DNA of 64,000 bases, from the IMG/VR virus record IMGVR_UViG_3300042891_002161; one strand, 5' to 3'. The notes beneath the pieces were generated by a model that did no database searches, had not been told where the DNA came from, and saw only the letters and a list, made by a program, of their open reading frames with translations. The DNA is from a virus. Lineage: Duplodnaviria; Heunggongvirae; Uroviricota; Caudoviricetes. Within the stretch, counting starts at the first letter, position 1; each line of letters opens with the position of its first letter. Below, in pieces: positions 4,515-62,684 of this stretch. Position numbers and translations under genes: made by a program.

Positions 4515-4602
4515 GCGGAGAGTGAGGGATTCGAACCCTCGGTACCCTTTCAGGTACACACGCTTTCCAAGCGTGCTCCATAAACCACTCGGACAACTCT
4601 CC
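4515..4602 (-). tRNA. tRNA-Ser (anticodon GGA), type II
   Basis: Acceptor GGAGAGT/ACTCTCC. Anticodon arm CACGC-TTGGAAA-GCGTG. Long variable arm. T-arm GAGGGTTCGAATCCCTC. Discriminator G. CCA is not encoded. Confidence 0.8.
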
Positions 4603-4612
4603 AGTTATCTTT

Positions 4613-4699
4613 GCGGAGAGCAGAGTATTCGAAACTCACACATTTTATTGTGCCACTCGCTTAGCAGGCGGTGCTAGTACCCTGACTAGTTTACTCTCC
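4613..4699 (-). tRNA. type II tRNA, Ser-like (possible anticodon GCU; imperfect anticodon stem)
   Basis: Same GGAGAGT acceptor, GTTCGAATACTC T-arm and roughly 87-nt length. The candidate anticodon loop CTGCTAA has only a 3-bp stem in my fold, so it could be a pseudo-tRNA. Confidence 0.5.
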
Positions 4700-4704
4700 A
4701 TTAG

Positions 4705-4787
4705 CGGAAGAAGAGGGAATCGAACCCCCAAAGCCTTACGACCCAGCCGCTTTCAAGGCGGTGTCCTCGTCCATTCGGACTCCTTCC
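4705..4787 (-). tRNA. tRNA-Ser (anticodon UGA), type II
   Basis: Acceptor GGAAGGA/TTCTTCC. Anticodon loop CTTGAAA. T-arm GGGGGTTCGATTCCCTC. Discriminator G. Confidence 0.65.
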
Positions 4788-4792
4788 GGTTG

Positions 4793-4876
4793 CGGAGAGG
4801 TGAGGTATCGATCCCCATACCTTTCGGTACGACTAGTTTTCAAGACTAGCTTTAGCGCCAGCTAAATTACCTCTCC
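4793..4876 (-). tRNA. type II tRNA, Ser-like (anticodon loop CTTGAAA = UGA), with an unusual T-loop
   Basis: Acceptor GGAGAGG/CCTCTCC. Anticodon arm CTAGT-CTTGAAA-ACTAG. Discriminator G. The T-loop ATCGATA is non-canonical. The 5' half overlaps the HNH remnant frame. Confidence 0.55.
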
Positions 4877-5069
4877 TTTCATTAAAGTGATGTATTCTAT
4901 GACAATTTGAACATAAAACAATACACTTTTCTATTTCTTCTAATATCCTATCTTTGTTACAAGATTTTATAATATTTGATACTTCTGATTCTTTTTTACC
5001 AATATGATGAAAATCTAAAGCGGCTGGATGTGAAAATCCACATTCTTGGCATTTTAGAGAACTTTGAAA
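4833..5069 (-). pseudogene. HNH endonuclease domain remnant (no start codon; 3' end reads into a tRNA)
   Basis: The frame translates FQSSLKCQECGFSHPAALDFHHIGKKESEVSNIIKSCNKDRILEEIEKCIVLCSNCHRIHHFNERRGNLAGAK..., a full C-x2-C...HH...N...C-x2-C-H-x2-H HNH core. An in-frame TAA lies immediately upstream and there is no ATG. It lies between tRNA-Arg and the tRNA-Ser block. Confidence 0.55.
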
Positions 5070-5093
5070 TTAAAAATATGTTCGTATCACTTG

Positions 5094-5166
5094 TAGTCCC
5101 AGAAGGATTCGAACCTTCATTTTTGGTTTCGTAGACCAATGTCCTGTCCAGTTGAACGATGGAACC
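5094..5166 (-). tRNA. tRNA-Arg (anticodon ACG)
   Basis: Acceptor GGTTCCA/TGGGACT (with G-U pairs). Anticodon arm TTGGT-CTACGAA-ACCAA. T-arm GAAGGTTCGAATCCTTC. Discriminator A. Confidence 0.75.
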
Positions 5167-5170
5167 ATAT

Positions 5171-5215
5171 AAAAACAAAAAACCCTTCAAACTTGAGTTC
5201 GAAGGGTTTCTTTAA
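5171..5215. terminator. rho-independent, bidirectional-type hairpin
   Basis: A-run, then the inverted repeat ACCCTTCaaacttgagttcGAAGGGT, then TTTCTTT. It lies downstream of the minus-strand gene at 5370-5972. Confidence 0.6.
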
Positions 5216-5263
5216 TATCTTTTTTACTTGACTATTATGAACACGATCGAACCTCACTCATTT

Positions 5264-5291
5264 TTGACGAGCGACTTGACGATTTTGACGA
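5264..5291. promoter_or_regulatory. three direct TTGACGA repeats in the 5' region of the minus-strand gene cluster
   Basis: TTGACGA at 5264-5270, 5276-5282 and 5285-5291, within about 100 nt downstream of the stop of gene 5370-5972. Confidence 0.25.
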
Positions 5292-5369
5292 TGTGTAAAT
5301 AATTGTTTTCATAATCTTATTGTATATATTACAAATGTAATCTTTGTTTTTGTTATTTCCTAATTTTTT

Positions 5370-5972
5370 TTATACTAAATCTTCAGCATCAGCTGGAAGA
5401 GTTATTCTAACAAGTTGTCTTTTAACATCTTCTTCTAATGGTAAAGACTCGTGAATGAATGTTGAATTACCCCAATATAAAGTATTACTCTTTAAGTTGA
5501 AGTTTTCCATTTTAGAAAGATCTAAATGTGAACAATCTCCACCTTGGTTTGGTTGACCTTCATAATCACCATTCCAACCTTTACAAGCTTCATAAGAAGA
5601 AACAATTAACATTCCACCTTTTTCAGAACAATATTGTTCTTCGTGTTTATCTCTTGGTAAAAATCTACCATCTTCTCCAGTTAACCAGCCGCTTCCGCCG
5701 CCACCCCATCCAAATAGATAGTTTCCATCAGTATGTGGTCCACCTCTTCTATGAGATTCACCTTTACTAACAATTTTTTCATCAATTGTTAAATATGCTT
5801 TACCTGTTTTCTTAGGTGAGCAATCAACAATCTCTTTAAGAACAGATTCCCATCTTTCATAACCTATTGGTAAAGTAGGATTCTCCATATCGAATTCGTG
5901 CATATAAACTCTATCACCTCTGTATTCTGGAAGAGATATCGGTTTAATCATTTTTGATTTACTTTTTAACAT
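5370..5972 (-). CDS. hypothetical protein, possible 2OG-Fe(II) oxygenase-like fold
   Basis: Candidate HxD (GGPHTDGNY) and a distal His (NSTFIHESLP) about 95 residues apart. The assignment is weak. Confidence 0.3.
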   Translation of the reverse strand: MLKSKSKMIKPISLPEYRGDRVYMHEFDMENPTLPIGYERWESVLKEIVDCSPKKTGKAYLTIDEKIVSKGESHRRGGPHTDGNYLFGWGGGGSGWLTGEDGRFLPRDKHEEQYCSEKGGMLIVSSYEACKGWNGDYEGQPNQGGDCSHLDLSKMENFNLKSNTLYWGNSTFIHESLPLEEDVKRQLVRITLPADAEDLV

Positions 5973-5988
5973 AATGTTATTTAATTTT

Positions 5989-6171
5989 TTAGTAGTTATC
6001 GTAGAAGTAATCTTTAAGATCTTTTTCTCCGTAACCTTTTTCTCTTAGGACTTTATACATTTCATAAGATGATTTGTTCTTTTTATTAGTATCAATAAAA
6101 TCTTCAATTTCATCTTTTTTAGAAACTTTTTCGCCTTTTACCTTTTCATTAAATTTTTGTAAATGTTTCAT
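5989..6171 (-). CDS. small Lys/Glu-rich hypothetical protein
   Basis: 60-aa ORF with a TAATATATAC-type motif upstream on the minus strand. Confidence 0.4.
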   Translation of the reverse strand: MKHLQKFNEKVKGEKVSKKDEIEDFIDTNKKNKSSYEMYKVLREKGYGEKDLKDYFYDNY

Positions 6172-6221
6172 TTTTTAATCTTTGATTTTATGTATATATT
6201 AAAATCAATATTTATATTTTG

Positions 6222-6350
6222 TGGGGATGGTTGGATTCGAACCAACGACCTTATAATTTCAAAATATACGAAGTAACTCTCTCAATCAACACTCTTTACG
6301 AGGTAAAATTTCAAAAGAGATAGTTTTCTCTACCACTGAGCTACATCCCC
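6222..6350 (-). tRNA. tRNA-like gene with a ~55-nt insertion (intron-like or disrupted; isotype unresolved)
   Basis: The 5' end GGGGATGTAGCTCAGTGGTAGAG and the 3' end AGGTCGTTGGTTCGAATCCAACCATCCCCA are canonical. The middle holds about 55 extra nt with a duplicated TTTTGAAATT segment (candidate anticodon loop: GAA or UGA). Confidence 0.45.
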
Positions 6351-6413
6351 AAATGAATTTATTACGTTACTTGAAAAGTGCCAAGTCGATAAAATTCTAA
6401 ACGGTCTCATAAC

Positions 6414-6558
6414 TAGGGAGAGAGGCAGGGCTCGAACCTGCGACCACGGATTTAAAAGATCGAAGTAACTCTTAACATCACTACTAATATTGATAATCAA
6501 TATCAGAGAATCCTTGTCAGAGTAATTGCGTGCTCTACCAACTGAGCTACTCTCTCCA
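6414..6558 (-). tRNA. tRNA-like gene with a ~70-nt structured insertion (His-like G-1/C73 architecture; isotype unresolved)
   Basis: The 5' end G-GAGAGAG-TA-GCTCAGTTGGTAGAGC and the 3' end GTGGTCGCAGGTTCGAGCCCTGC-CTCTCTC-C are canonical. The central insertion contains nested perfect hairpins (ATATTGAT/ATCAATAT; ACTCT/AGAGT). Confidence 0.45.
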
Positions 6559-6567
6559 TATTATTTG

Positions 6568-6650
6568 TGATTCCGGTGGGACTCGAACCCACGGTGGACT
6601 TTCATCGACAGATTAAGAGTCTGTTGCAATCGCCGCTATGCGACGGAATC
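6568..6650 (-). tRNA. atypical tRNA: Lys-type anticodon loop (CUU) on a type II-like scaffold
   Basis: Acceptor GATTCCG/CGGAATC. Anticodon arm ACAGA-CTCTTAA-TCTGT. D-loop contains AGCGGC. About 15 nt lie between the anticodon stem and the T-stem. T-arm GTGGGTTCGAGTCCCAC. Discriminator A. Confidence 0.5.
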
Positions 6651-6657
6651 ATTTTTG

Positions 6658-6740
6658 TGCGTCTGGTGGGACTCGAACCCACGGTTGAAATTAATCGACT
6701 GGTTAAAAGCCAGCTGCTATAGCCACTAAGCGACAGACGC
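6658..6740 (-). tRNA. atypical tRNA: anticodon UUU on a type II-like scaffold (paralogue of 6568 and 6750)
   Basis: Acceptor GCGTCTG/CAGACGC. Anticodon arm GCTGG-CTTTTAA-CCAGT. A 15-nt variable region. Identical T-arm GTGGGTTCGAGTCCCAC. Discriminator A. Confidence 0.5.
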
Positions 6741-6749
6741 AATACTTAG

Positions 6750-6834
6750 TGATCCTGGTGGGACTCGAACCCACGGTTGAGAATTAACTCTACTGGTTAA
6801 AAGCCAGTTGCTATAGCCGCTAAGCGACAGGATC
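6750..6834 (-). tRNA. atypical tRNA: anticodon UUU on a type II-like scaffold
   Basis: Acceptor GATCCTG/CAGGATC. Anticodon arm ACTGG-CTTTTAA-CCAGT. Variable region AGAGTTAATTCTCAACC forms a GAG/CTC hairpin. Same T-arm as 6568 and 6658. Confidence 0.5.
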
Positions 6835-6847
6835 ATTTGTATTTTAG

Positions 6848-6920
6848 TGATCCCGGTGGGGTTTGAACCCACAACCTTCCGATTAAAAGTCGGAAGCTCC
6901 ACCAATTGAGCTACGGAATC
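6848..6920 (-). tRNA. tRNA-Lys (anticodon UUU), canonical type I
   Basis: GATTCCG-TA-GCTCAATTGGTGGAGC-T-TCCGA-CTTTTAA-TCGGA-AGGTT-GTGGGTTCAAACCCCAC-CGGGATC-A. Confidence 0.85.
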
Positions 6921-6934
6921 ATTGTCTTTTTGAG

Positions 6935-6960
6935 GGCAACGATCCGTATGAATCGTTGCC
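6935..6960. other. 9-bp stem hairpin in a tRNA spacer (possible processing or termination signal)
   Basis: GGCAACGAT-ccgtatga-ATCGTTGCC. Confidence 0.3.
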
Positions 6961-7007
6961 TAGCGTTTATATTTCAATTTTGTTTTCATTTCTTTTAATT
7001 TATTTTA

Positions 7008-7079
7008 GCACGCCATTGAGGAATTGAACCCCACCGTCGAGGTTTTGGAGACCTGACCGACACCTTGTCTGTATGACGT
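7008..7079 (-). tRNA. tRNA-Trp (anticodon CCA)
   Basis: Acceptor ACGTCAT/ATGGCGT. Anticodon arm AGGT-CTCCAAA-ACCT. T-arm TGGGGTTCAATTCCTCA. Discriminator G. Confidence 0.65.
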
Positions 7080-7091
7080 ATTTTATTTTAG

Positions 7092-7173
7092 CACAGGTAA
7101 AGAGACTCGAACTCTTAGCCACTCTTACGAATTACCGGGTTGGAGCCGGCTGGTCACACCAATGAGTACCTGT
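7092..7173 (-). tRNA. atypical tRNA with candidate anticodon loop CTCCAAC (CCA) and an extended (~17-nt) variable region
   Basis: Acceptor ACAGGTA/TACCTGT is perfect. Anticodon arm GCCGG-CTCCAAC-CCGGT. T-arm AAGAGTTCGAGTCTCTT. The identity is uncertain. Confidence 0.4.
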
Positions 7174-7179
7174 ATGTTG

Positions 7180-7251
7180 TGGAGACTGACGGAATCGAAC
7201 CGACCTCTTCCGGGCTTCAACCGGACGCTAAACCAACTTAGCTAAGTCTCC
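7180..7251 (-). tRNA. tRNA-Phe (anticodon GAA)
   Basis: Acceptor GGAGACT/AGTCTCC. Anticodon arm TCCGG-TTGAAGC-CCGGA. T-loop TTCGATT. Discriminator A. Confidence 0.75.
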
Positions 7252-7254
7252 TTT

Positions 7255-7331
7255 TGGGTGAATGACGGGTTACGATCCCGCTACCTCTGGTACCACAAAC
7301 CAGCGCTCTACCGATTGAGCTACATTCACCA
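7255..7331 (-). tRNA. tRNA-His (anticodon GUG) with encoded G-1 and 3' CCA
   Basis: G-GTGAATG-TA-GCTCAATCGGTAGAGC-G-CTGGT-TTGTGGT-ACCAG-AGGTA-GCGGGATCGTAACCCGT-CATTCAC-C-CA. Confidence 0.85.
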
Positions 7332-7484
7332 TAATACCCCACTTCATCAGATTACCGGACTGACTGCCATATGGGAGTGGGGGTCTCCTGTTTATCTCAG
7401 GACTCCGTGGAACCTCCCGGTAACGATCCGGGCTCCCTGGATTTTCAGTCCAGTGCTTTCACCTGATTAGCTTAGGTTCCAATT
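7332..7484 (-). ncRNA. unassigned GC-rich (about 50% GC) structured spacer between the two His tRNAs
   Basis: Local GC is far above the 28-30% background. Hairpins include CCCGG-atcgtta-CCGGG and TCCTG-agataaa-CAGGA, and a CTGATGA element is present. No tRNA cloverleaf could be drawn. Confidence 0.3.
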
Positions 7485-7618: not shown

Positions 7619-7835
7619 AATATTGTTCTTTATATAAATAGACTTGTTACATCTTATTTGAGAGCAATACACTTTCAGTACCGAACTGGTTGCTAAACCA
7701 CTTATTCGATTTACTAAAATGTTTATGTGTATTATTTGTTCTCATTGTAATTATATATTAAAAAGTTTTTGTTCCTTTTGTTGTTTTTGTTCTTATTTTA
7801 TACAAATATAGATAAAAGTTTTAAATCTACCTAAT

Positions 7836-8177: not shown

Positions 8178-8315
8178 AATTTCCTTTTTTAATTTTTAAG
8201 GAAATTTCTAACGTGAATTTCAATAACGGCTCCACTGACTATTTACAGTTATCAGTTCTGTTTTGTTATACAAATATAAGATGGATTTTTTAATCCACCA
8301 AATTATTTTTAATTT

Positions 8316-8528: not shown

Positions 8529-8627
8529 AATTTATTTTTCTTTTTATATAATAAAATTAGTAATTTGTTTTTTTATAAAATTGCAAACATGATTTTTAAT
8601 ATATACACTAAAATATAAAACTACAAA

Positions 8628-9736: not shown

Positions 9737-10048
9737 TCTTCTTTGAGTTGGGTTTAATCATTAGTTATTTGAGACATCTATCACCAACACGACTTTGACA
9801 TCTACACCCTTACTATTTATCATATAGTTATATTACAAGGTAGTTCACTGTGTTTAACAAGGGTGTTAACTTATTTAACAGCTACTTACTACCATAATTT
9901 CGTTAAGACTCACACCGTTTTATCATATTATTAATGTGAAATCTTTCAATCTGTTGATTTCTCAACTTTTGCCTTAACGACTCTTTGTTTGTTATACAAA
10001 TGTATAAAGAAAGTTTTAATTTACCAAATAAATTTTAATATATAGAGT

Positions 10049-12065: not shown

Positions 12066-12500
12066 TTACATACTACGACGGATCTCACGATCCATATCTC
12101 TTTTTTTGATTGTTTCTCTTTTATCGTATAACTTTTTCCCTTTAACAACACCCAATTTAACTTTAACTCTGTTATGTGCTGTAAATATTTCTAACGGAAC
12201 CATAGTTGTTCCTTTATCTTGAAGTAATTTTTCAATTCTATCAATTTCTTTCCGATTAAGAAGTAATTTCTTATCTCTATTTTCATCATGTGGTTGAAAT
12301 GCGTGACTTTGTGAGTATCTAGCAACTTTCATGTTTTTAATCCAAATTTCACCTTTTTGTATGTAAGCAAAACAATCAGCAATAGTTACATTACCTTTTC
12401 TAATAGATTTAACCTCGCTACCCAATAGCATTACACCTGCGTCAAAGTCTTCCAACACAAAGTATTCATAATACGCTTTTCTATTAGTTGTTATTTTCAT
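12066..12500 (-). CDS. smpB: SsrA-binding protein SmpB
   Basis: Alignable along its length to bacterial SmpB (KAYYEYFVLEDFDAGVMLLGSEVKSIR.G...IADCFA...GE.W..N..V.....S.....D..R.KKLLLNRKEID..EK....KG.T.VPL.......VKV.L.V.KGKK.YDKRETIKKRD..REI.R). Confidence 0.85.
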   Translation of the reverse strand: MKITTNRKAYYEYFVLEDFDAGVMLLGSEVKSIRKGNVTIADCFAYIQKGEIWIKNMKVARYSQSHAFQPHDENRDKKLLLNRKEIDRIEKLLQDKGTTMVPLEIFTAHNRVKVKLGVVKGKKLYDKRETIKKRDMDREIRRSM

Positions 12501-13083
12501 AGTTACAAATATAGTTATAATCTTTTAATTTATCAAATGATACTAGTATATCATCTCCATTCTCACCGAATCTATTCTTTATTACTTTCATTGATTCATC
12601 TTGCATTATAATAGCCACATCACTTGCATAAATTGGCTTACTGCCACCTTTGAAATTTGTAATACTAGCATCATCAACACTCTTTCCACTACTATATAGT
12701 GATGTTAATATTAAAAGTTTATAAGGTGGTGTTTGAGGGTAAACACCAGAATAATTTGAGTATAAATCTTCTCTGATTTTACCAATAATATTTCCTATTT
12801 GATTTTGTCTACCTCCCAAATCATCTGAATTAAATCTGATATCATTTAAATCTAAAACAAGATACTCTGGATTGTTTACAGTGTTACCAGTTTCTAAAAT
12901 TGATTGAAGTTTCAAATCTCTTAAAAAAGATTTAAAAGAAAAAGACGAGTCTATTTCAGGAACCACCAGGTGAGGTAGTTTAGAAATAATCTCGTCTTTG
13001 AGTCTTTCCTGCTTGAATCTATACCCCAAAAGAGATATATCAGATTTTTGTATTAATTCAAAAAAATATTCAATGTTTTTCAT
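12484..13083 (-). CDS. hypothetical protein
   Basis: 199-aa ORF. Confidence 0.5.
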   Translation of the reverse strand: MKNIEYFFELIQKSDISLLGYRFKQERLKDEIISKLPHLVVPEIDSSFSFKSFLRDLKLQSILETGNTVNNPEYLVLDLNDIRFNSDDLGGRQNQIGNIIGKIREDLYSNYSGVYPQTPPYKLLILTSLYSSGKSVDDASITNFKGGSKPIYASDVAIIMQDESMKVIKNRFGENGDDILVSFDKLKDYNYICNYENNN

Positions 13084-13094
13084 TTGACTTTATT

Positions 13095-13463
13095 TTAAAA
13101 GTCAGTGTCAGTGTTGTCAATAGAATCAACTGATTCAGATGGTGCTAATAAACCATCAATAATTTCAGTTAATTTTTTCTTAGTTACAGCCCCGTGTGTT
13201 GATTCAACAATTTGACCATCTTTATAAAAGAAGATTGTTGGAATATTTCTAACACCAAGTTCCATGACTTTATCTCTGTTTGCATCAGCATCACATTTAC
13301 CAACTTTAATTTGATCAACATAATCTGAAGAGATTTGATCCACAATAGGAGAAATCATTTTACAAGGACCACACCAAGGTGCCCAAATGTCAACAAGTAC
13401 TATTCCTTCTTTAACGAAATCATCATAGTTCTCACCGTTTAATTCTGTTATATATGCTACCAT
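13095..13463 (-). CDS. thioredoxin
   Basis: Active site WAPWCGPCK with a thioredoxin-fold context (VLVDIWA...C.M..P). Confidence 0.85.
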   Translation of the reverse strand: MVAYITELNGENYDDFVKEGIVLVDIWAPWCGPCKMISPIVDQISSDYVDQIKVGKCDADANRDKVMELGVRNIPTIFFYKDGQIVESTHGAVTKKKLTEIIDGLLAPSESVDSIDNTDTDF

Positions 13464-14831: not shown

Positions 14832-15602
14832 TTACATTAACATTTCATCAATAGCGTCAAACTCTTTCTTAGTTTCACGAACTAAGATAGCTCTTCCGTT
14901 ACGAATTTGTGATTTAACTGTTGATAGGTTTAGGTTAAGTTTATCAGAGATATCTTTATAAGACATTCTTTTTAACTCACGCATTTCAATTACATCACGA
15001 TAAGGATTCTTCAAGTTCTGAATATGTTTCTTCATAATGTCAGCTTTCTTAGCATGAATCTCATGCATGAAATTGTCACCTTCGTCTTCTTGAATGAAGT
15101 CTTTCATTGTTGTGCCTTCATCATCAAACTCAATATCTAATGACATTGTTTTCTTTTCGTTTTTAAGGTCTTGTAATGCTAGATTTTTTGCTATTGTAAA
15201 TAGCCAGGTAGAGAATTGAGATTTTTCTTTTTCATATTTCTCAATCTTCTCAAAAGCCGCCATGAATGAATCTGTTGAGATATCTTCTGCCTTTTGAGGG
15301 TCATTAGTAATTTTAGCTGTAAAATATACTAGTTTTGGGTAATACTTTGTGTACAATGAAGAGAAGTCTTTACCCGTTCTTTCTCTAAAGATTTTTTCTT
15401 GTTCACTGAATAAAATCGCTTTTGATTCCATAATTTGCCGTTTCTTTTTTTGTTGAGGAGTCATTAATTCATCCTCAATATTGCCTTCTTTTGCCGTTAA
15501 TGGTGATTGCTCACCCGAATAATTTATATCATATATATCAGCAAAAGTTGTGTCTGTTTCAAAGTTTTTTTCACTTTGATTTTCTAGTTTTATTTCTATC
15601 AT
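14832..15602 (-). CDS. sigma-70 family (ECF-like) RNA polymerase sigma factor
   Basis: Region 2-like FMAAFEKIEKYEKEKSQFSTWLFTIAKNLALQDLK. Region 4.2-like helix-turn-helix MRELKRMSYKDISDKLNLNLSTVKSQIRNGRAILV. Confidence 0.75.
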   Translation of the reverse strand: MIEIKLENQSEKNFETDTTFADIYDINYSGEQSPLTAKEGNIEDELMTPQQKKKRQIMESKAILFSEQEKIFRERTGKDFSSLYTKYYPKLVYFTAKITNDPQKAEDISTDSFMAAFEKIEKYEKEKSQFSTWLFTIAKNLALQDLKNEKKTMSLDIEFDDEGTTMKDFIQEDEGDNFMHEIHAKKADIMKKHIQNLKNPYRDVIEMRELKRMSYKDISDKLNLNLSTVKSQIRNGRAILVRETKKEFDAIDEMLM

Positions 15603-16327: not shown

Positions 16328-18157
16328 TTATTTTAACATATTTTCTAATTGTTCAACTGTAATCACTTCAACACCTAATTCAATAGCTTTCTTCTCTTTA
16401 GAAGAACCACTACCAATTGACTTCATTACAAGATGAGTTGTTGTTTTTGATACACCAGAACCAATCTTTCCACCACGAGATTCAATATCAGATTCTAAAT
16501 CTGGTCTACGAACTCCGGTAAAGACAAATGATTTACCCTCAAGGTCTGTGCCAACTTTAACAGCCTCAACTTTTTCAGTAATAGTGACAGGTAGATCTTT
16601 AATGAAGTCAAAAAAAATGTCATATGAGTCAATGTATGATTTAGCAGATACTTCAGCAAATCCTTCAATTGACATTACTTGGTCAACAGTTGGTTTAGTT
16701 TTGAAATTTTCTAAAAGAACTAATTTCTTAGAGCCTAATCCTTTGAAGATACCGGTAGCGTGTTGTAGTTTAGACAACTGAACATTACTAACAGACTTTT
16801 GAATAGATTTATAAACGATGTCAGCTTTTCTCTTACCAAAACGGTCAATCTTCTCTAAGTCAGAAGTTGTAAGAGTAAGAACATCTTTGATTGTTTTATA
16901 ACCAGCATCCCATAATTGAGTAATAACTCCTTCTGACACATTGTCTGCTTCTAAGATTTCAAAGAAAGCAACAATCTTTTTCAACTTCTGATCATCAGTT
17001 TCAGTTAAAGTGATTAACTCAATACCCGCATCATTCCAATCTACTTCAACACCTTCAATTGTAGGTTGAACAAATTCAACTGGAGTGATAACATCAGCAA
17101 TGATTGGAATAACCATTCCGGAACGTTTTACGACTACTTTGGCACCTACACCAAGTCCTAAGTCTTTTACAAATCTGGCGTTATTACCAGTCACGTTAGA
17201 CACTGTTACACCGTCAAGTTTAACTGGGTTAATATGTAGAATAGGTTTTAGTAAACCTTGTTTGGAAATATTCCAAGAGATTCCAATAACATCGGTTTCA
17301 GCAGATTGCTCAAAACTTGGATGTTTGAAGGCACGAGCCCATACTGGATTGTTTGAAGAAGTTTCACGACCTAACTTATCTTGAAGTTTTAGGTCATTTA
17401 ATTCAATAATCAAACCGTCAATTTCATATTCAGTAGAGAACTTATGAAATAAGTCAATAAGTAAATCTTCTGATAAATCAGATAATTGACAAATATGATA
17501 TTGTACTTTTGATACTTGCCCTTTGTTAAGTTCGTTAATAACTTCTTGTTTAGTAGAAAAGTTTCTTTTACAAACAGCACCGTATTTAATATACTGGCAA
17601 TCTTTTAGAGAATCACTTACAGTTTTAGAGTTTAACAAACCAGCAACTAAGTTACGAGGATTTGCGAAATCAGCTGAGAATTTATCAATGAATACTTGTT
17701 TAGGTATCATTACTTCACCGTAAGTAAAACTAAATGGATCTTCTTCTAAATTTAAGTGATTTTGAATTAAAGCGTAATGTTCATTTGATTTTTGACCAAA
17801 TTCTCCATCACCACGAGTCCAAGCTTCAGATGTAGTCTCGTTTACGCATAGTGACAAGCCATCAAATTTTGGTGTGATAATAACATATTCAGATTTTGAA
17901 ATACCTTTTAGACGAGACCAATCATCAACATCATTCATTGACTTAATTTTGTTCATTGAAGCCATTTCAATAGGAAGACGAGATTTGCGTGTTTCATCAG
18001 CAATTTCAACACCTACTTTAGTAAGTAATTCATCATCTGGTGATAATAAAGACAGTTCTTCAACTAGTTGGTCATACTTAGCATCAGATATGATTGGTTG
18101 TCCCAACCTATAGGCATCATTTGCCTTAATAATTTGCTCTTTTAATTGTTCAATCAT
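16328..18157 (-). CDS. ligA: NAD-dependent DNA ligase (LigA)
   Basis: N-terminal Ia domain YRLGQPIISDAKYDQL. Adenylation motif I ITPKFDGLSL (KxDG). OB fold. C-terminal BRCT domain (GKSFVFTGV...LGVEVIT). Confidence 0.85.
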   Translation of the reverse strand: MIEQLKEQIIKANDAYRLGQPIISDAKYDQLVEELSLLSPDDELLTKVGVEIADETRKSRLPIEMASMNKIKSMNDVDDWSRLKGISKSEYVIITPKFDGLSLCVNETTSEAWTRGDGEFGQKSNEHYALIQNHLNLEEDPFSFTYGEVMIPKQVFIDKFSADFANPRNLVAGLLNSKTVSDSLKDCQYIKYGAVCKRNFSTKQEVINELNKGQVSKVQYHICQLSDLSEDLLIDLFHKFSTEYEIDGLIIELNDLKLQDKLGRETSSNNPVWARAFKHPSFEQSAETDVIGISWNISKQGLLKPILHINPVKLDGVTVSNVTGNNARFVKDLGLGVGAKVVVKRSGMVIPIIADVITPVEFVQPTIEGVEVDWNDAGIELITLTETDDQKLKKIVAFFEILEADNVSEGVITQLWDAGYKTIKDVLTLTTSDLEKIDRFGKRKADIVYKSIQKSVSNVQLSKLQHATGIFKGLGSKKLVLLENFKTKPTVDQVMSIEGFAEVSAKSYIDSYDIFFDFIKDLPVTITEKVEAVKVGTDLEGKSFVFTGVRRPDLESDIESRGGKIGSGVSKTTTHLVMKSIGSGSSKEKKAIELGVEVITVEQLENMLK

Positions 18158-18179
18158 TTTACAAAGATAGTTAATTTTT

Positions 18180-18739: not shown

Positions 18740-18821
18740 AGATAAGGAATTAATTTGTTAAAAACAAATATTAAAGAAATGAGTAGAATTTAATATATAA
18801 GAAAAATCAATAGATTAAAAA

Positions 18822-34630: not shown

Positions 34631-35095
34631 TTATATTTCTATGTTAATTTTATTGAATGCTTCTTGTAAATCTTTTTTAGAAAACTTATTGAGTACAAAG
34701 GTAAGTAAATCTTCTGAATTGTCAAATTTATTTAAAATATAATCTTTCATAAACTCGGTATAGTCAGATTTATCAGCTATTCCAAGTTGTAACATTTTTA
34801 CATTTCTATCCCACTGAACTCCACCGTTAACAACAAATTTGCCCTCAATATTTTTAATTTCAGTAGTAAATTTTCTACGATAGTCTGTTGTGGCTGGTGT
34901 AGTTACTCCTGTGTTATAATCATAAGTTTCCCAATCACGAATAGTCATTTCATGAACTCGTTCTGGATAATCATGTATATTGTCGCACAAATCTTTTGCG
35001 TCTCTTAAACCAAGACCACTACACTCTTTTATTAGCTTAACAAAAGCCAATTTCTGAGTTGTTGGTTGGATTAATTTTATTTTAATAGTTTTCAT
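34631..35095 (-). CDS. hypothetical protein
   Basis: 154-aa ORF. Confidence 0.5.
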   Translation of the reverse strand: MKTIKIKLIQPTTQKLAFVKLIKECSGLGLRDAKDLCDNIHDYPERVHEMTIRDWETYDYNTGVTTPATTDYRRKFTTEIKNIEGKFVVNGGVQWDRNVKMLQLGIADKSDYTEFMKDYILNKFDNSEDLLTFVLNKFSKKDLQEAFNKINIEI

Positions 35096-35703: not shown

Positions 35704-35780
35704 TTTTTAGAATATATTATTTCTACAAATATAGTAACTATATTTTAATTCGGCAAATTTTTTCTAAATATATAAACAAA

Positions 35781-42736: not shown

Positions 42737-43471
42737 TTAAATATTTTTTAAATCGTTTTTAACTTTTTCCATACCAGTTGATGCCAATTCTTGGTAATGA
42801 GTAAATAAGTCATTTCTGTATTCTGGTACATAGAAATCAAGGTCTGATAAATCCACATAGTAAATCTTAGCAGTTTCTCTAGTCAAAAATGGAATTGTAT
42901 TAGCAGGTGAAACTTTCATTGAAGTTCCAACAACAATACAAACATCACATTCTTTAGCCGCTTCTGTAGCCATATCAACAAAATCTGGATCTAGATTTTC
43001 ACCAAACCAAACAATATGCGGTCTTAATTGAGAACCAGTTGTTGGACATTTATCACCAATATTAATTGGATTATATCCTATATCAATAATATTATCTAGC
43101 GGTGATGTTTTGTGGTCATACATACAACCTCTCGCCTTTGTTAATTCACCGTGTAAGTGAATAATATTAGTTGAGCCTGCTCTTTCGTGTAAATCATCAA
43201 CATTCTGAGTTACAACAGTAACATCAAAATCTTTTTCTAAATCAGCAATTATTTTATGCGCCAAATTTGGCTCAACATCTTTCATTTGAGCACGACGCAT
43301 ATTGTAGAAATTAAGAACTTTTTCTCTATCTCTACGCCACCCACTAGGTGTGGCAACATCTTCTACTTTGTGATTATACCAAAGTCCGTCATCTCCAGTT
43401 CTAAAAGTAGCAACGCCACTTTCAGCTGAAACTCCTGCTCCAGTAAAAATCAATACTTTTTTCTTATTCAT
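42737..43471 (-). CDS. Sir2-family NAD-dependent deacylase (sirtuin)
   Basis: GAGVSAESGVATFRTGDDGLWY (NAD-binding GAGIS..SGIPTFRG..GLW), zinc-ribbon cysteines, VGTSMKV and a catalytic His context (HLHGEL). Confidence 0.85.
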   Translation of the reverse strand: MNKKKVLIFTGAGVSAESGVATFRTGDDGLWYNHKVEDVATPSGWRRDREKVLNFYNMRRAQMKDVEPNLAHKIIADLEKDFDVTVVTQNVDDLHERAGSTNIIHLHGELTKARGCMYDHKTSPLDNIIDIGYNPINIGDKCPTTGSQLRPHIVWFGENLDPDFVDMATEAAKECDVCIVVGTSMKVSPANTIPFLTRETAKIYYVDLSDLDFYVPEYRNDLFTHYQELASTGMEKVKNDLKNI

Positions 43472-43558
43472 ACTATTTTACAAAGATAATTAAATAAAGT
43501 TTAATAACAAAGAACGTCTTGATAAATAATATATACATAAAATTCCTTTGTTAAATAG

Positions 43559-48355: not shown

Positions 48356-48403
48356 CACCCGTAAGATAATAAAATTAATATATAATAAAAATTAAAAAAT
48401 TAA

Positions 48404-53091: not shown

Positions 53092-53105
53092 TAATTTGAA
53101 AGTTT

Positions 53106-53143
53106 AATTCTAAGAATTAAACTTTCTTTTTTAATAAAAGATA
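53106..53143. terminator. bidirectional terminator between convergent genes
   Basis: GAAAGTTTAATTCtaaGAATTAAACTTTCTTTTTT. Confidence 0.6.
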
Positions 53144-53830
53144 ACCAACCATTCCGGCGACATCTTTAGAGCAATTACCCATAGATTCAATTTTAGTTTC
53201 ATCGCCGGTTAACTTAATACCTGATAGTTTTTGTTTACCTAAGATTCTTTTCTCACCATTACACTTTTTACAAGGTGTTAAACCTACTTTACCTTTACCA
53301 TTACAGAAGTTACAAGAATCACCTTTATAGTCTTTACCTGAACCTTCACAGAAGTCACAACCATCATCAGCATCAAATGTTTTTAGAATATTACCATCAT
53401 TGTCTTTAATAACAATTTTGGCGGAAAGATCTTTACCTGTACCATCACAAGTTTTACATTTAACCCATCTTTCATATTCTAAAGTACCATCAAATTTATC
53501 ACCTATTGTAAGATAAATATCTAAAACTTCATTCTTCTTAAATTTTTCAAAATTTGACTTTTCTTTCTGATAATCAAAATCTATATTAACATCAAATAGT
53601 TCAAAGTATTCATTATAGTTATTACCAAATTTACTTTTAACATCATAGTCTTTTCTTTTTTCACCACAAAGAACATCATATGCCTCTGTCATTTCACCAA
53701 AAGTAACAGGGTTGCCACCTTTATCGGGGTGGTGAGTAAATGATAGTTTATAGTAAGCTTTCTTTATTACCTTTTCATCAGAGTTATTATCAACTCCAAG
53801 AATTGAGTAATAGTTTTTATTCAAATTCAT
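53117..53830 (-). CDS. DnaJ-type J-domain protein with CxxCxGxG zinc-finger repeats (short; no C-terminal substrate domains)
   Basis: J domain YYSILGV...AYYKLSFTHHPDKGG (HPD). Four CxxCxGxG repeats (CKTCDGTGKD, CDFCEGSGKD, CNFCNGKGK, CKKCNGEKR). Confidence 0.8.
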   Translation of the reverse strand: MNLNKNYYSILGVDNNSDEKVIKKAYYKLSFTHHPDKGGNPVTFGEMTEAYDVLCGEKRKDYDVKSKFGNNYNEYFELFDVNIDFDYQKEKSNFEKFKKNEVLDIYLTIGDKFDGTLEYERWVKCKTCDGTGKDLSAKIVIKDNDGNILKTFDADDGCDFCEGSGKDYKGDSCNFCNGKGKVGLTPCKKCNGEKRILGKQKLSGIKLTGDETKIESMGNCSKDVAGMVGYLLLKKKV

Positions 53831-54032
53831 AGAATCCTATTTCTTTTAATTTTTGTTTCATCTCTTGTTTATCTTTTACTTCACTAATAATATCACAAAC
53901 TTGGTGAGATATACCATCACACTCTATAATAAGAGCATCAGGCTTTGTTACATAGCCTATTAAGTAATCTAAGCCATTAGAAGCGGCTGATAATAAACTA
54001 CTTTTACTGATAAATCTTTTATTGAATCCCAT
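53817..54032 (-). CDS. small protein with a DUF559/Vsr-like endonuclease motif fragment
   Basis: DYLIGYVTKPDALIIECDGISHQ resembles the DF....lAIEvDG..H core. Confidence 0.3.
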   Translation of the reverse strand: MGFNKRFISKSSLLSAASNGLDYLIGYVTKPDALIIECDGISHQVCDIISEVKDKQEMKQKLKEIGFYEFE

Positions 54033-54318
54033 CTAATATTTGATTAATTTTCTTTTCTCTTAAAATTGATTTGTTTGTTTTTTCAAACTCACCTTTTTTA
54101 TCTTTATATCCACAATCATTACAAATACTTTGTGATGGAATAGTCGGTTTAGAACCATCTGTTGGTATAAAAAATTTCCATTTTATATTTTTACTTTTAC
54201 AATTAGGACAACCTGATAAATCTTCTATCGGCTTTATAAAGCCAGATTTTTGTAATTTTCCTAAATCATAAGTTTTATTATTTTGATTAGGAAATAAACC
54301 AAGTAATTTATTAATCAT
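54019..54318 (-). CDS. zinc-ribbon protein
   Basis: CPNC...(19 aa)...CNDC. The track start at 54342 overlaps rpsU, so an internal Met is the likely start. Confidence 0.4.
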   Translation of the reverse strand: MINKLLGLFPNQNNKTYDLGKLQKSGFIKPIEDLSGCPNCKSKNIKWKFFIPTDGSKPTIPSQSICNDCGYKDKKGEFEKTNKSILREKKINQILDGIQ

Positions 54319-54499
54319 TATTTCTGTATTTATCTTGAACATACTTAGCTTTGTTAATCTCAGCTCTTCTTTTTACAGATCTTTTAGTGAACTCTTTTCT
54401 ATCTCTTAATTCTCTAAGAGTTTTAGTTTTATCCCACTTTCTTTTAAGGGTTTTAAGAGCTTTCTCAATTGTTGTTCCTTCTACTTTTACTAATAGCAT
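54311..54499 (-). CDS. rpsU: ribosomal protein bS21
   Basis: MLLVKVEGTTIEKALKTLKRKWDKTKTLRELRDRKEFTKRSVKRRAEINKAKY parallels bacterial S21 M..V.V.....E.ALR.FKR.....G.L.E.RRRE.YEKP...RKR. Confidence 0.8.
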   Translation of the reverse strand: MLLVKVEGTTIEKALKTLKRKWDKTKTLRELRDRKEFTKRSVKRRAEINKAKYVQDKYRNND

Positions 54500-54565
54500 A
54501 TTAAAATCTTTTTTTATAGTTTATATATTTAATATATATACTTATATCTATAAAATATAACATAG

Positions 54566-56095
54566 TTGAAAATGATTAAAAAATATTCAGACTTCTTAAA
54601 CGAAAACTTAGAATTCATCATAGAATCTAATGTTGTTTATTCTGATAACTTCAGAAAAGCAATGACCAAAATTGAACACCCAATGGCTAAAGCTATTTTA
54701 GGTGTTGAAAACAATGATATTACGGTTCAGGCTAACTACCTTGATATTGAGTTTTCTAAAAATGATACAATTACTTTTACTCCTGATAGAAAAGCTCAAG
54801 AGATTTTAGGTGATACTAAAGAAGTAGTTAGATTCACTGGTTCTGGTGGTGGTTGGTTAAAACACAAAGACTCAAATGCTAAATTATTTACTCAATTAGG
54901 TTATACATTTGAAGAAGGTTCTGAGCCTTATAAACCAAATTCAAGAGATTTGGGTGAAATAGTTGCTAGAGTTACTTCTGAATCAAGTGGTAAAGTCTAC
55001 GCTTGGGTTAAATTCAAAGATAATTCAGGTAATGATGTTGGTAAAGGTGTTTATAATGTTGAGAAGTTAAGATCTGTTGATGAAAAACTTAAAAAAGTTT
55101 GGTCATCTAATAGACAAGAGGTTAAAGTAGGTAGAGCAATGAGAGCGCTTTTGAAAGCGGCTGGTGCTGAATTTACTGATAGAGATTTTGAACAATTTGT
55201 AAATTTATATAAAGCTACTATTGATAAGATGAATGATAAGTTTTCTTATATTGAAGTTGTTAGAGGTGGAGATATTGCTCACTGGTATCATGCTGAAAAT
55301 TACTTTCAAAGAAGTGGTACATTAGGTTCATCTTGTATGGCTGGTGCTCCAGATAGTTGGTTAGAAGTTTATACCGCTAATCCAGAAGTTGGTTTAGTTA
55401 TTTACAAATCAATGGATGATACTGAAAAGATTATTGGTAGAGCATTACTTTGGAAATTAAAAGATGGTAAAGAATTCTTAGATAGAATTTATACAGTAAA
55501 TGATTCTGATGTTCAATTATTTAGAGATTATGCTAAAGAAAATGGTTGGTACTATAAAGAACATAATAATAGCTCAGATAGTAGTAATGCTATAGCTCCA
55601 GATGGAAGTAGAGTTAGTTTAGACTTAACTGTTAATTTAACTGATGCTAGTATGGATAATTTTCCTTACTTAGATACACTTAAATATTTCAACCCAAGAA
55701 GAAAAACAATTTCAAATGAAGATACTGGTGGATGTTATTTCTTAGAAGATACAGGTGGTGATTATGTTAGACCTTGTGATACTTGTGGTGGATCGGGTAG
55801 AATGGAATGTGGAGATTGTGATGGAAACGGTGACCATCAATGTTCAGATTGTGATGGTGATGGAGAAGTTGATTGTGGTGAGTGTGATGGCTCTGGTAAA
55901 GAAGAATGTTCAAACTGTAGTGGATCAGGAGAAGTAGACGGTGAATCTTGTGGAGATTGTGAGGGAACAGGACAAGTTAATTGTTCTTCTTGTGATGATA
56001 AAGGTAAAATAGAATGTACATCTTGTGACGGAGATGGTAGAGTAGAATGTGGTGAATGTGGTGGTAGAGGACAAGTAGATTGTTACGACTGTTAA
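54566..56095 (+). CDS. CTS-leader protein with nine C-terminal CxxCxGxG (DnaJ-type) zinc-finger repeats
   Basis: N-terminus MKMIKKYSDFLNEN. The C-terminal 100 aa are CDTCGGSG, CGDCDGNG, CSDCDGDG, CGECDGSG, CSNCSGSG, CGDCEGTG, CSSCDDKG, CTSCDGDG and CGECGGRG. Confidence 0.7.
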   Translation: MKMIKKYSDFLNENLEFIIESNVVYSDNFRKAMTKIEHPMAKAILGVENNDITVQANYLDIEFSKNDTITFTPDRKAQEILGDTKEVVRFTGSGGGWLKHKDSNAKLFTQLGYTFEEGSEPYKPNSRDLGEIVARVTSESSGKVYAWVKFKDNSGNDVGKGVYNVEKLRSVDEKLKKVWSSNRQEVKVGRAMRALLKAAGAEFTDRDFEQFVNLYKATIDKMNDKFSYIEVVRGGDIAHWYHAENYFQRSGTLGSSCMAGAPDSWLEVYTANPEVGLVIYKSMDDTEKIIGRALLWKLKDGKEFLDRIYTVNDSDVQLFRDYAKENGWYYKEHNNSSDSSNAIAPDGSRVSLDLTVNLTDASMDNFPYLDTLKYFNPRRKTISNEDTGGCYFLEDTGGDYVRPCDTCGGSGRMECGDCDGNGDHQCSDCDGDGEVDCGECDGSGKEECSNCSGSGEVDGESCGDCEGTGQVNCSSCDDKGKIECTSCDGDGRVECGECGGRGQVDCYDC

Positions 56096-56143: not shown

Positions 56144-56431
56144 TATTCCTAAATCTTTTAATCTTTTTTGTCTAATAATTTGCTTTAATGAGTGTGTATC
56201 ATAAATACTACATCCGTATTTTTCTAAACAATACAAATTTATACTTTCATCAAATTTATTATAATTAAAACCACTTACTTTATTCTTGAGTAATAATTCA
56301 TATAATTTGACTGAATATTGTTTCTCACTATCTCTAGCTATAGCCGCCTTCTCATATTTTTGAGAACTAATGGCTTCCTTCTTATCTTTCTTAGCGTTAA
56401 GATATAATTCTAATAAATTATCAATTTCCAT
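56141..56431 (-). CDS. hypothetical protein
   Basis: 96 aa. Overlaps the upstream gene by 11 nt. Confidence 0.45.
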   Translation of the reverse strand: MEIDNLLELYLNAKKDKKEAISSQKYEKAAIARDSEKQYSVKLYELLLKNKVSGFNYNKFDESINLYCLEKYGCSIYDTHSLKQIIRQKRLKDLGI

Positions 56432-58169
56432 AATTAAGATTAACTTCTTCTATTGATGAAAAAACTTCTTTATTAATCTTCAATATTCTATCAAACATTT
56501 CCTGGTTCAAAATAGCATGATGAACAACAAAGATATTGATGTTATAATCATTTGCGAATGATTTTAAGAGTGCCAAAATAGAATCTATACCCTCTATGTC
56601 AATTGATGAGAAAACCTCATCCAAGAAGAGTATATTGATATGTCTTTTAGTTCTAATTAATTTTAAGTAAGCAATTAAGATACTAATATTAACTTTCTTA
56701 GTTTCACCAGTTGATAAAGAATCGTGTTCAATTGGAGAACCTAATTGTTTAATCTCAGCTGTAAAAGTTTCATCTAATCTTACTTCAAATGGCAAACCCA
56801 TCTTTTTGATATTCTCAGCAATAAAGTGATTGATTGGTTTGATAATACCAGAGATGATTGATTTTTTAACACCATCTTCACCGAAGATACGATTCAACTC
56901 TTTATAATAAAGGTCTTTCTCTTTACAAACTGTGATGTTATCGGAACTAACTACTTTCTTTTCTTCAAGTTCTTCAATTGTATTTTGAAACTCTTGAATA
57001 TTAATAGAAGGAGTAGTATTAACCGGAACAGTTTGAGAAGCTTTCTTTTGAACTAATTTATCAATCTCTGATTTATAGTTTTTCAATAGATAACTTAAAT
57101 CATTAAAAGTTGTTGTTGTTGTTTCAGATAAACCTTTTAACTTAACTTGTCTTTCTCTTATCTTAGTAACATTAGCTTCAATTTCAGATTTGATATTTTC
57201 AAAACCTAATTTCTTTTCTTCTAATGCCGTTCTTAGATTAGCAAAGTGAACCGAATCAAAATCTGTTTTACAAGTTGGACATTTACCAGAATCATATAAA
57301 TCTAATTCTCTTTGAACATTCTTAATATCATTTTGACAATTGATAAGTTGTCTTTTTTCTTTATCCATTTCATCAGAAAGTTCAGAGTCTTTTTCTTTGA
57401 TTTTATCCATCTTTTCTTTCAAAGACTTATAGTCATCTTTTCTAGAGTTCATCTCACCAGTGATTCTATCAATCTCAGCTTGAATATCTTCCTTTTCGCG
57501 TTCTAAGGCTAATCTGGCTTCTTCTTTTTGTCTTTCAATGGCTTTATCAATAGACCTTTGAATAGATAAAATTGAATCATTTAAAGTTCTAATTTCACCA
57601 TCAAAAGAAGCCGCTCTAACTTTATTATTCTTTGCGATATCTTTTAAGATACCATTTAAGATATTGATAACTTCTAAGTTGAACAACTTATCTAAAAGAA
57701 GTTGCTTTTCTTCATTTGATAAAGAGATAAAATTTTTGAAGTCATTGATTGATAGACTTATAAATGATTTGAAAGTTTCCAAATCAATGCCTATATAATC
57801 TTCAATTTTTTCATCTATATTAGATTTACCAGCTCTTTCATTCAAAACCCCATTCTCCCAAAGCTCAAGTATAGAAGGTGATATACCTCGTTTGACCTCA
57901 ACATTAACACCATTTGAGATAAACTTGACACGATTCAACAATTCACCATTAATTCTGTTCGGAAGTGTTGATAGTGTAGACCATCTTTTCTTTTTACCGC
58001 GAGTTTTGCCGTATAGTGTGTAATCAAAAGAGTCCAAAAGTGAAGATTTACCAGCACCATTATTACCAACCAATAATATTAGTTCACCCTTTTCGGTGTT
58101 TAATACCAACACTTGTTCGTTATTTCCAAAAGATTTAAATCCTCTAATTCCTACTTCTTGTATTACCAT
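56421..58169 (-). CDS. SbcC/Rad50-like recombination ATPase (T4 gp46-like)
   Basis: Walker A GNNGAGKSSLLD. Long coiled coil with CPTC zinc hook. ABC signature LSTGETKKVNISI. Walker B ILFLDEVFSSID. H-loop VVHH. Confidence 0.85.
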   Translation of the reverse strand: MVIQEVGIRGFKSFGNNEQVLVLNTEKGELILLVGNNGAGKSSLLDSFDYTLYGKTRGKKKRWSTLSTLPNRINGELLNRVKFISNGVNVEVKRGISPSILELWENGVLNERAGKSNIDEKIEDYIGIDLETFKSFISLSINDFKNFISLSNEEKQLLLDKLFNLEVINILNGILKDIAKNNKVRAASFDGEIRTLNDSILSIQRSIDKAIERQKEEARLALEREKEDIQAEIDRITGEMNSRKDDYKSLKEKMDKIKEKDSELSDEMDKEKRQLINCQNDIKNVQRELDLYDSGKCPTCKTDFDSVHFANLRTALEEKKLGFENIKSEIEANVTKIRERQVKLKGLSETTTTTFNDLSYLLKNYKSEIDKLVQKKASQTVPVNTTPSINIQEFQNTIEELEEKKVVSSDNITVCKEKDLYYKELNRIFGEDGVKKSIISGIIKPINHFIAENIKKMGLPFEVRLDETFTAEIKQLGSPIEHDSLSTGETKKVNISILIAYLKLIRTKRHINILFLDEVFSSIDIEGIDSILALLKSFANDYNINIFVVHHAILNQEMFDRILKINKEVFSSIEEVNLNYGN

Positions 58170-62667: not shown

Positions 62668-62684
62668 AGTTTATATATTAAAAA

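Follow-up and report, generated by a model that had tools for sequence, protein, structure and literature searches.

A bS21 gene heading a conserved operon in DNA of a huge phage

Of the ribosomal proteins encoded by viruses, bS21 is the most frequent. Huge phages have been reported to encode S21, S1, L7/L12, SmpB, transfer-messenger RNA (tmRNA) and many tRNAs; the largest of their genomes all fall in the Mahaphage clade, and for those above 634 kb replication in Bacteroidetes was predicted (Al-Shayeb 2020, PMC7162821). The bS21 proteins of freshwater-lake Bacteroidetes phages with genomes of up to 331 kb were analysed by Chen 2022 (PMC9723584). Here we describe a bS21 gene on the minus strand of a 64,000-nucleotide (nt) stretch of caudoviricete DNA, IMG/VR record IMGVR_UViG_3300042891_002161 (hereafter the window; Table 1). 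An earlier note, made from the letters of this DNA, had assigned the 62-amino-acid (aa) product to S21, had listed a YqeY protein, an S1-domain protein, SmpB and tRNAs beside it, and had remarked that the composition fits with viral S21 being reported in phages of AT-rich marine and Bacteroidetes hosts. Our overall reading, to which we give a probability of roughly 0.6, is that the gene encodes what would be a functional bS21 of a ~650-kb huge phage, acting on host ribosomes.

The best described counterpart is bS21 of Flavobacterium johnsoniae, in which Y54 and I55 stack and pack on A1534 and the 3′ tail of 16S rRNA and thereby help to sequester the anti-Shine–Dalgarno (anti-SD) sequence; initiation without a Shine–Dalgarno (SD) sequence on A-rich leaders is the Bacteroidota mode, and bacterial bS21 has a conserved KPS/T motif that separates its N-terminal part from its C-terminal part (Jha 2021, PMC7797042). 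Many Flavobacteriales rpsU genes are autoregulated via a strong SD, the extended SD being used by bS21-free ribosomes (PMC9976891). The bS21 paralogues of Francisella tularensis set a precedent for an alternative bS21 that alters which mRNAs are translated (PMC9578407, PMC13374519); unlike the window gene, they are chromosomal, gammaproteobacterial and non-viral, and adjoin yqeY. As for phage proteins, a passage in McNutt 2023 (PMC9976891) credits Mizuno 2019 (PMC6375957) with the incorporation of phage bS21 into Escherichia coli ribosomes. Pelagibacter phage HTVC008M, the source of this precedent, resembles the window phage as an AT-rich aquatic phage that encodes bS21, but its host is an alphaproteobacterium and the relationship is distant, HTVC008M giving no match in the tblastn search (E ≤ 1e-3) by which S21 relatives were collected.

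The 62-codon open reading frame (ORF) scored 42.7 bits against Ribosomal_S21 (PF01165; gathering cutoff 27, E 4.7e-11), with residues 7–53 aligned to positions 6–52 of the 55-position profile, and 35.7 bits against the NCBIfam equivalog TIGR00030 (cutoff 28.95), with residues 6–57 aligned to positions 5–57 of 58. The top solved-structure match was F. johnsoniae bS21 (PDB 7jil_z; residues 2–56, E 5.4e-12, 48 bits), against which no gap exceeded one residue. The product has an isoelectric point of 10.4 and contains 21 Lys + Arg. With residues 6–57 of the 62 covered and both cutoffs exceeded, the S21 assignment of the earlier note stands, and by these alignments the ORF is almost certainly a genuine ribosomal protein bS21. 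An antisense ORF (54351..54560) was rejected as a gene, being of low complexity and unsupported.

In the 7jil_z alignment, Y53 and V54 of the window S21 align with Y54 and I55 of F. johnsoniae bS21, and the equivalent pair is missing from Nitrospirota S21 proteins; judged from this alignment, the anti-SD-sequestering residues specific to Bacteroidota are retained in the phage protein. Its N-terminal helix departs from the host type, carrying T17, L18 and W22 (TL...W) and not R, Y and F (RY...F), differences from Bacteroidota bS21 that are constant throughout the phage S21 family, and its C-terminal tail is also unlike that of host-type bS21. Phage S21 differs where bS21 faces mRNA. The phages of Chen 2022 resemble this one: their S21 retains the Tyr54-equivalent aromatic, diverges in the N-terminal helix and has a C-terminal tail conserved inside a clade, and diverged strains again share an exact S21 protein; the same mechanism was proposed for them, and Phe23 was flagged as divergent between phage and bacterial bS21 (PMC9723584). 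Unlike many of the phage S21 proteins of Al-Shayeb 2020, for which an N-terminal extension was reported (PMC7162821), the window S21 has no such extension.

The window S21 belongs to a family with 210 metagenomic members of 61–64 aa, which share the motifs KRKWDKTK and KALKTLKRKWDKTK and, at the C-terminus, the tail ...A(K/A)Y(V/I)Q(D/K)KY(R/G)xND. The closest cellular S21 proteins are from Bacteroidota (a Bacteroidota metagenome-assembled genome (MAG), Crocinitomicaceae and Flavobacteriales) at 55–58% identity, and the neighbourhood of the cellular locus L007 is clearly bacterial. In a neighbor-joining distance tree the family grouped with the S21 of huge phage LR756502, beside Bacteroidota bS21 and apart from Nitrospirota bS21; a tree of a 62-aa protein speaks to grouping only and not to the direction of gene transfer. 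The S21 gene is not a recent capture, because its G + C content (28%) matches that of the genome (30%). Between the window and genomes 89–97% identical to it in nucleotides, the S21 coding sequence differed by 0–2 substitutions, all synonymous; these strain loci were fetched by exact protein identity, and only the synonymous-only pattern is counted as evidence.

Among phage records, similar DNA or a similar S21 protein was found only in LR756502 (642 kb), LR745206 (634 kb), LR756501/3 (735 kb) and LR756504 (636 kb), huge phages (PMC7162821) of the same lineage and similar size whose S21 proteins are 47–56% identical to that of the window. Nucleotide similarity to the huge phages extended over 14% of a tested 21-kb stretch, at 76% identity. 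LR756502 and LR745206 share the gene order around S21, down to the J-domain gene that follows it, at amino-acid identities of 44–79%; for LR756502 these were 79% for an SMC/Rad50-like ATPase, 69% for the J-domain protein (68% in LR745206), 68% for Sir2, 56% for S21 and 43–45% for the large ORFs. Orthologues of the S1-like protein, SmpB and YqeY (64–69%) hold matching relative positions in both genomes, and the whole window is therefore collinear with ~60 kb of LR756502 and LR745206.

The exact S21 protein was present in 84 blocks of the assembly collection, and the window is 89–97% identical in nucleotides to six contigs that carry it. The longest contig, Ga0620986_00085 (JGI 3300071516; 816,658 bp), has two copies 650,659 bp apart (loci L003 and L004); because both S21 regions on it share 97% identity, the contig is read as two concatenated strain variants of a genome of ~650 kb. 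On these sequence comparisons the window belongs to a ~650-kb huge phage related to the published 634–735 kb genomes, about twice the size of the phages of Chen 2022; the clade assignment rests on similarity to the LR756502 and LR745206 records. A Bacteroidetes-type host fits the Bacteroidota-like S21, the lack of SD use described below and the predicted hosts of the relatives (PMC7162821).

S21 is the first gene of an operon on the minus strand that continues with a small zinc-ribbon (Zn-ribbon) protein, a 71-aa protein and a J-domain protein. The genes are tightly packed: an internal ATG (54318) of the Zn-ribbon ORF overlaps the S21 stop codon by 8 nt within ATGATTAA. A 13-bp hairpin behind the J-domain gene is likely a bidirectional terminator that closes the operon. 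The J-domain protein scored far under the DnaJ equivalog cutoffs. The Zn-ribbon gene also occurs in loci L001–L006 and L035, and the N-terminus of the 71-aa protein is shared, in LR756502 and LR745206, by the gene that separates S21 from the DnaJ-like gene. The string from S21 to the J-domain protein is present in both of these genomes and is kept in contigs of 527, 445 and 481 kb whose S21 is 61–82% identical to that of the window; in one lineage the S21 and J-domain genes overlap directly. The J-domain gene was not found near S21 in LR756501 and LR756504. Across contigs of 445–816 kb the operon position of S21 is conserved. New here is the place of S21 at the head of a conserved S21-to-J-domain string; the linkage is not described in the main text of Al-Shayeb 2020 (PMC7162821) or Chen 2022 (PMC9723584). 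Divergent to S21, a 507-aa protein (54572–56095, plus strand) carries about 11 tandem CxxCxGxG repeats in its C-terminal part, similar to DnaJ-type zinc fingers, and is kept in LR756502 at 44% identity.

The S21 gene is preceded by a short motif that recurs in the window. Fifteen of the 23 window copies of the 8-mer AATATATA lie within 60 nt 5′ of a gene start (23-fold enrichment), and the 10-mer TTAATATATA occurs 13 times against 1.8 expected, a count reached in 0 of 100 shuffles. Copies of the (T)TAATATATA form are almost always intergenic and in the orientation of the next gene, at 12–14 or 27–36 nt from the start codon. Upstream of S21, AATATATA is conserved in L001–L006, L037 and the 735-kb phage LR756501. 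S21 is thus probably preceded by a phage-specific AATATATA promoter class, although promoter function is something we infer from position and recurrence. The motif is reminiscent of the T4 late promoter TATAAATA. We found no mention of this class of motif 5′ of S21 in Al-Shayeb 2020 (PMC7162821) or Chen 2022 (PMC9723584). A scan for the sigma-70 consensus around S21 stayed at background (24 sites, 24.7 expected), and the TAnnTTTG −7 promoter that is present at several of the nearest bacterial rpsU genes is absent at the window S21.

An SD core at −18 to −4 was found in 3 of 69 phage genes, equal to the 4.5% background, and the gene leaders are G-poor with 50–67% A. No SD occurs in the 80 nt 5′ of the window S21, which is accordingly placed, by sequence, outside the probable reach of host SD-based feedback. 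The extended SD aaaggaggt stands 5′ of the bacterial rpsU genes L009 and L010. Unlike the window gene, the S21 gene of LR756501 (L030, 5968–6000) is preceded by TTAATATATA as well as by an extended SD, aaaggagga, like the autoregulated Flavobacteriales rpsU. That some megaphage S21 genes have an SD and others lack one is a modest new observation.

In our overall reading, S21 is transcribed probably from a AATATATA-type promoter as the first cistron of an mRNA that continues through the Zn-ribbon, 71-aa and J-domain genes to the terminator hairpin. The phage bS21 would occupy the position of bS21 on the platform of the host's 30S subunits, and the kept Tyr + Ile/Val pair would hold the 16S rRNA 3′ tail with its anti-SD sequestered, which would suit the A-rich, SD-less phage leaders. 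The divergent N-terminal helix is the likeliest part to bias initiation to phage transcripts, or it may simply sustain initiation. We consider incorporation of phage S21 into host ribosomes likely, and selectivity for phage mRNA a tentative and rather doubtful addition. Several observations weigh against the reading. In place of the bacterial KPS/T motif the window S21 has K39-R40-S41 (KRS), with K and S kept and P replaced; because P is also absent from a Bacteroidia MAG rpsU (L009, KKS) and from other megaphage S21 proteins, it is not strictly required. Pfam and PHROG searches of 43–64 kb showed no recognisable gene for a capsid protein, protease or terminase within ten genes of S21, and the large ORFs beside it (1598, 1073 and 509 aa) remained without annotation in these databases. 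In the phages of Chen 2022, S21 lies 2–6 genes from capsid and prohead-protease genes, whereas the conserved partner here is the J-domain protein; the late-gene association of that study is not confirmable at the window S21 because no structural gene was recognised nearby. In PHROGs, one family of unknown function was the only match among S21, the S1-like protein and the large ORFs beside S21, and the database is thus uninformative on structural or late gene class. Finally, the window sequence holds no feature that indicates selectivity for phage mRNA over plain supply of bS21.

Plain supply, in which the phage protein tops up a loosely bound, late-assembling ribosomal protein through a long infection after shut-off of host gene expression and leaves mRNA preference unchanged, is an unlikely but serious alternative. 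The docking and anti-SD-sequestering residues are host-like, bS21 joins the 30S subunit late and Flavobacteria autoregulate it so that ribosomes remain fully supplied (PMC7797042, PMC9976891), and the phage carries further capacity-sustaining genes (SmpB, tRNAs and the J-domain protein). Against it, the family-wide change of R/Y/F to T17/L18/W22 suggests altered function; Chen 2022 also flagged the Phe23 divergence. In F. johnsoniae a strong autoregulatory SD goes together with KPS, in the phage the lack of an SD with KRS and another N-terminal helix and C-terminal tail. A regulatory or decoy role is highly improbable: phage S21 would fill bS21-free ribosomes or bind RNA off the ribosome, silencing the host rpsU loop or controlling particular mRNAs. 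The extended SD of L009 and L010, of the type used by bS21-free ribosomes (PMC9976891) and missing from the window gene, would fit it, as would the control that Francisella bS21 paralogues exert over rpsU2-yqeY mRNA (PMC13374519); yet the idea is inferential, still needs ribosome incorporation and so extends the overall reading, and the SD of LR756501 makes the feature inconsistent across the clade.

The earlier note had also heard in S21 and YqeY an echo of the bacterial rpsU-yqeY operon. Such adjacency is known in Francisella and Listeria (PMC13374519, PMC4424878), and both window genes are on the minus strand, but 45 kb and many genes separate them, and they are similarly distant in LR756502 (~48 kb; 323.9 kb versus 372.1 kb). 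At the 22 nearest bacterial loci, eight of them Bacteroidota, tblastn with a single divergent query, a weak test, showed no YqeY within 3 kb of rpsU, and many jumbo phages without an S21-query match have YqeY homologues (among them RAS14, XacN1, PA5oct and Bacillus phages). That the two genes are halves of a captured operon is therefore scarcely credible, and the echo is not borne out. A decaying or non-functional passenger gene, a notion for which nothing was found to speak, is effectively refuted by the intact frame, the conserved length, the 210 family members, the synonymous-only strain changes and the conserved operon position. We also entertained, as an improbable elaboration, that the string of S21, variable small Zn-ribbon or MGFNKR proteins and a J-domain and zinc-finger protein forms a ribosome-remodelling module; just as improbably, the J-domain protein would recruit host DnaK to the 30S subunit, evict host bS21 and load phage bS21, the AATATATA class switching the module on. 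McNutt 2023 speculated that phages may encode a bS21 exchange factor (PMC9976891).

The toolkit of S21, S1, SmpB and tRNAs in Bacteroidetes-infecting huge phages is already known (PMC7162821, PMC9723584), and the window S21 leaves the current picture of huge-phage biology unchanged. The additions are modest: the operon that links S21 to the J-domain gene, the AATATATA class of motifs and the SD/no-SD contrast, together with a family of at least 210 S21 variants from contigs of 445–816 kb. Replacement of host bS21 by the phage protein becomes more testable as a model, with anti-SD residues kept and the N-terminal helix altered, no autoregulatory SD, and linkage to a J-domain co-chaperone.

The remaining translation genes named in the earlier note were confirmed by profile searches, Ribosomal_S21 (PF01165), YqeY (PF09424) and S1 (PF00575) all giving significant matches; its listing needs a correction of strand, as S21, YqeY, SmpB and the tRNAs all lie on the minus strand. 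Its description of the repertoire as unusually rich holds against ordinary phages but not among huge phages, for which such sets were published in 2020 (PMC7162821) and of which two genomes carry four collinear orthologues. The YqeY alignment spans residues 4–131 on positions 1–141 of the 143-position PF09424 profile, and its orthologues in LR756502 and LR745206 are 68.7% and 64.7% identical.

Table 1 Features of the 64,000-nt window, with those of the S21 region first.
Feature	Coordinates	Strand	Details and evidence
bS21 gene	54311..54499	minus	62 codons, ATG to TAA; heads operon; PF01165 and TIGR00030
Zn-ribbon protein	54019..54342	minus	weak TackOD1-like match, PF18551 27.6 bits, below cutoff 32
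71-aa protein (MGFNKRFI...)	53817..54032	minus	no assigned function; 14-nt overlap with each neighbour
J-domain protein, 237 aa	53117..53830	minus	HPD motif and four CxxCxGxG; PF00226 58.3 bits; last gene of operon
Hairpin, 13 bp	53098..53126		T and A runs on both sides; between convergent genes
AATATATA promoter-like motif	54522..54529	minus	30 nt 5′ of S21 ATG
TTAATATATA, divergent copy of motif	54529–54538	plus	precedes the gene at 54572
(T)TAATATATA example sites	8596–8605, 18790–18799, 43527–43535, 48375–48384	plus	
(T)TAATATATA example site	62672–62681	minus	
TAYNTTTGTA sites	5330–5339, 7801–7810, 8269–8278, 9995–10004, 12504–12513, 18160–18169, 35724–35733, 43479–43488	minus	
YqeY/GatB-tail family protein, 134 aa	9160..9564	minus	PF09424 59.4 bits, cutoff 27
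bS1-like protein, 365 aa	27300..28397	plus	four S1/OB domains; PF00575 75.7 bits
SmpB	12066..12500	minus	PF01668 181 bits; TIGR00086 174.4 vs 119.1; NF003843 181.5 vs 130
tRNA cluster, at least 11 genes	4515..7480	minus	Ser, Arg, 4 × Lys, 2 × Phe, His, intron-bearing candidates
154-aa protein (KLAFVKLIKECSGLGLRDAKDL)	34631..35095	minus	half bL12 C-terminal domain; PF00542 26.5 bits, cutoff 25.9
Collagen-repeat protein	873–2531	plus	
SPFH/Band-7 protein, 640 aa	31029–32951	minus	
Sir2-family protein	42737–43471	minus	162 bits
Thioredoxin	13095–13463	minus	
NAD-dependent DNA ligase	16328–18157	minus	with BRCT domain

The S1-domain protein is collinear and in register with residues 63–345 of E. 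coli bS1. An AlphaFold2 model (mean predicted local distance difference test score (pLDDT) 75) has OB barrels at residues 55–117, 138–204, 226–287 and 303–364, and Foldseek searches with it returned bS1 chains as top matches (first 9gut_B, E 2.9e-23). The protein is shorter than bS1 (365 aa and four domains versus about 550–600 aa and six domains), and no rpsA equivalog model was passed (best 96–108 bits, cutoffs 524–624); because of the four domains and the scores far under these cutoffs, it is called bS1-like and not bS1. The N-terminal helix of E. coli bS1 docks on uS2. In the phage protein a helix is predicted at residues 11–18 with pLDDT < 50, and F17 is invariant in 29 homologues. The S1-like protein is widespread and strongly conserved, with 2372 homologues, the best 120 of which are all ~365 aa with at least 67% identity. 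Al-Shayeb 2020 was equally cautious on phage S1 (PMC7162821). In Lak phages, matches were partial for the S1-like protein and full-length for SmpB; no Lak phage record was found by the S21 query.

ARAGORN called nine tRNAs at 4515–7480 and Rfam 11; neither found a tmRNA in the 64-kb window. Two tRNA-like genes with inserts lie at 6416–6556 and 6222–6350 (both minus). In ARAGORN intron mode one of the insert-bearing genes is a candidate tRNA-Glu(TTC) with a 45-nt intron, and the other a candidate 'tRNA-Stop' (anticodon TTA, an ochre suppressor) whose 69-nt intron sits at a non-canonical position and whose anticodon stem has a C-C mismatch. A genuine ochre suppressor would surprise, because 63 of 69 genes end in TAA. 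Three of the four tandem tRNA-Lys genes (6567–6650, 6657–6740 and 6749–6834, minus) are 83–86 nt long with an unusual ~10–12 extra nt in the variable region. The 154-aa protein was considered as bL12 and rejected: its bL12-like stretch is a half-domain of ~35 residues (6–40) with a matchless remainder, it scored 24.7 against 84.4 for TIGR00855, and bL12 matches in the PDB had E ~0.05.

The generic Bacteroidetes −7 motif TAnnTTTG had ~100 matches, mostly intragenic, and is too degenerate for DNA of 30% G + C. The extended form TAYNTTTGTA was modestly enriched, occurring 11 times against 5.2 expected (2 of 100 shuffles reached 11); all 11 copies are on the minus strand, several directly 5′ of SmpB, the NAD-dependent DNA ligase, dephospho-CoA kinase (CoaE), Sir2 and tRNA blocks. 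As a lead only, this hints at a host-sigma promoter class separate from the AATATATA class. The window also encodes an extracytoplasmic-function (ECF)-type sigma factor (14832–15602, minus), which is above the cutoff of the sigma70-ECF superfamily model and nearest to the Bacteroidetes subfamily TIGR02985 (100 bits, cutoff 126.4).

Near S21, the SMC/Rad50-like ATPase gene (56421–58169, minus, in the window) is split in the related loci L001 (4110–7894) and L005 (2335–6119) into parts for residues 1–42 and 42–578. Between these two parts lies ~2 kb with additional ORFs, suggestive of a mobile insertion or intron.

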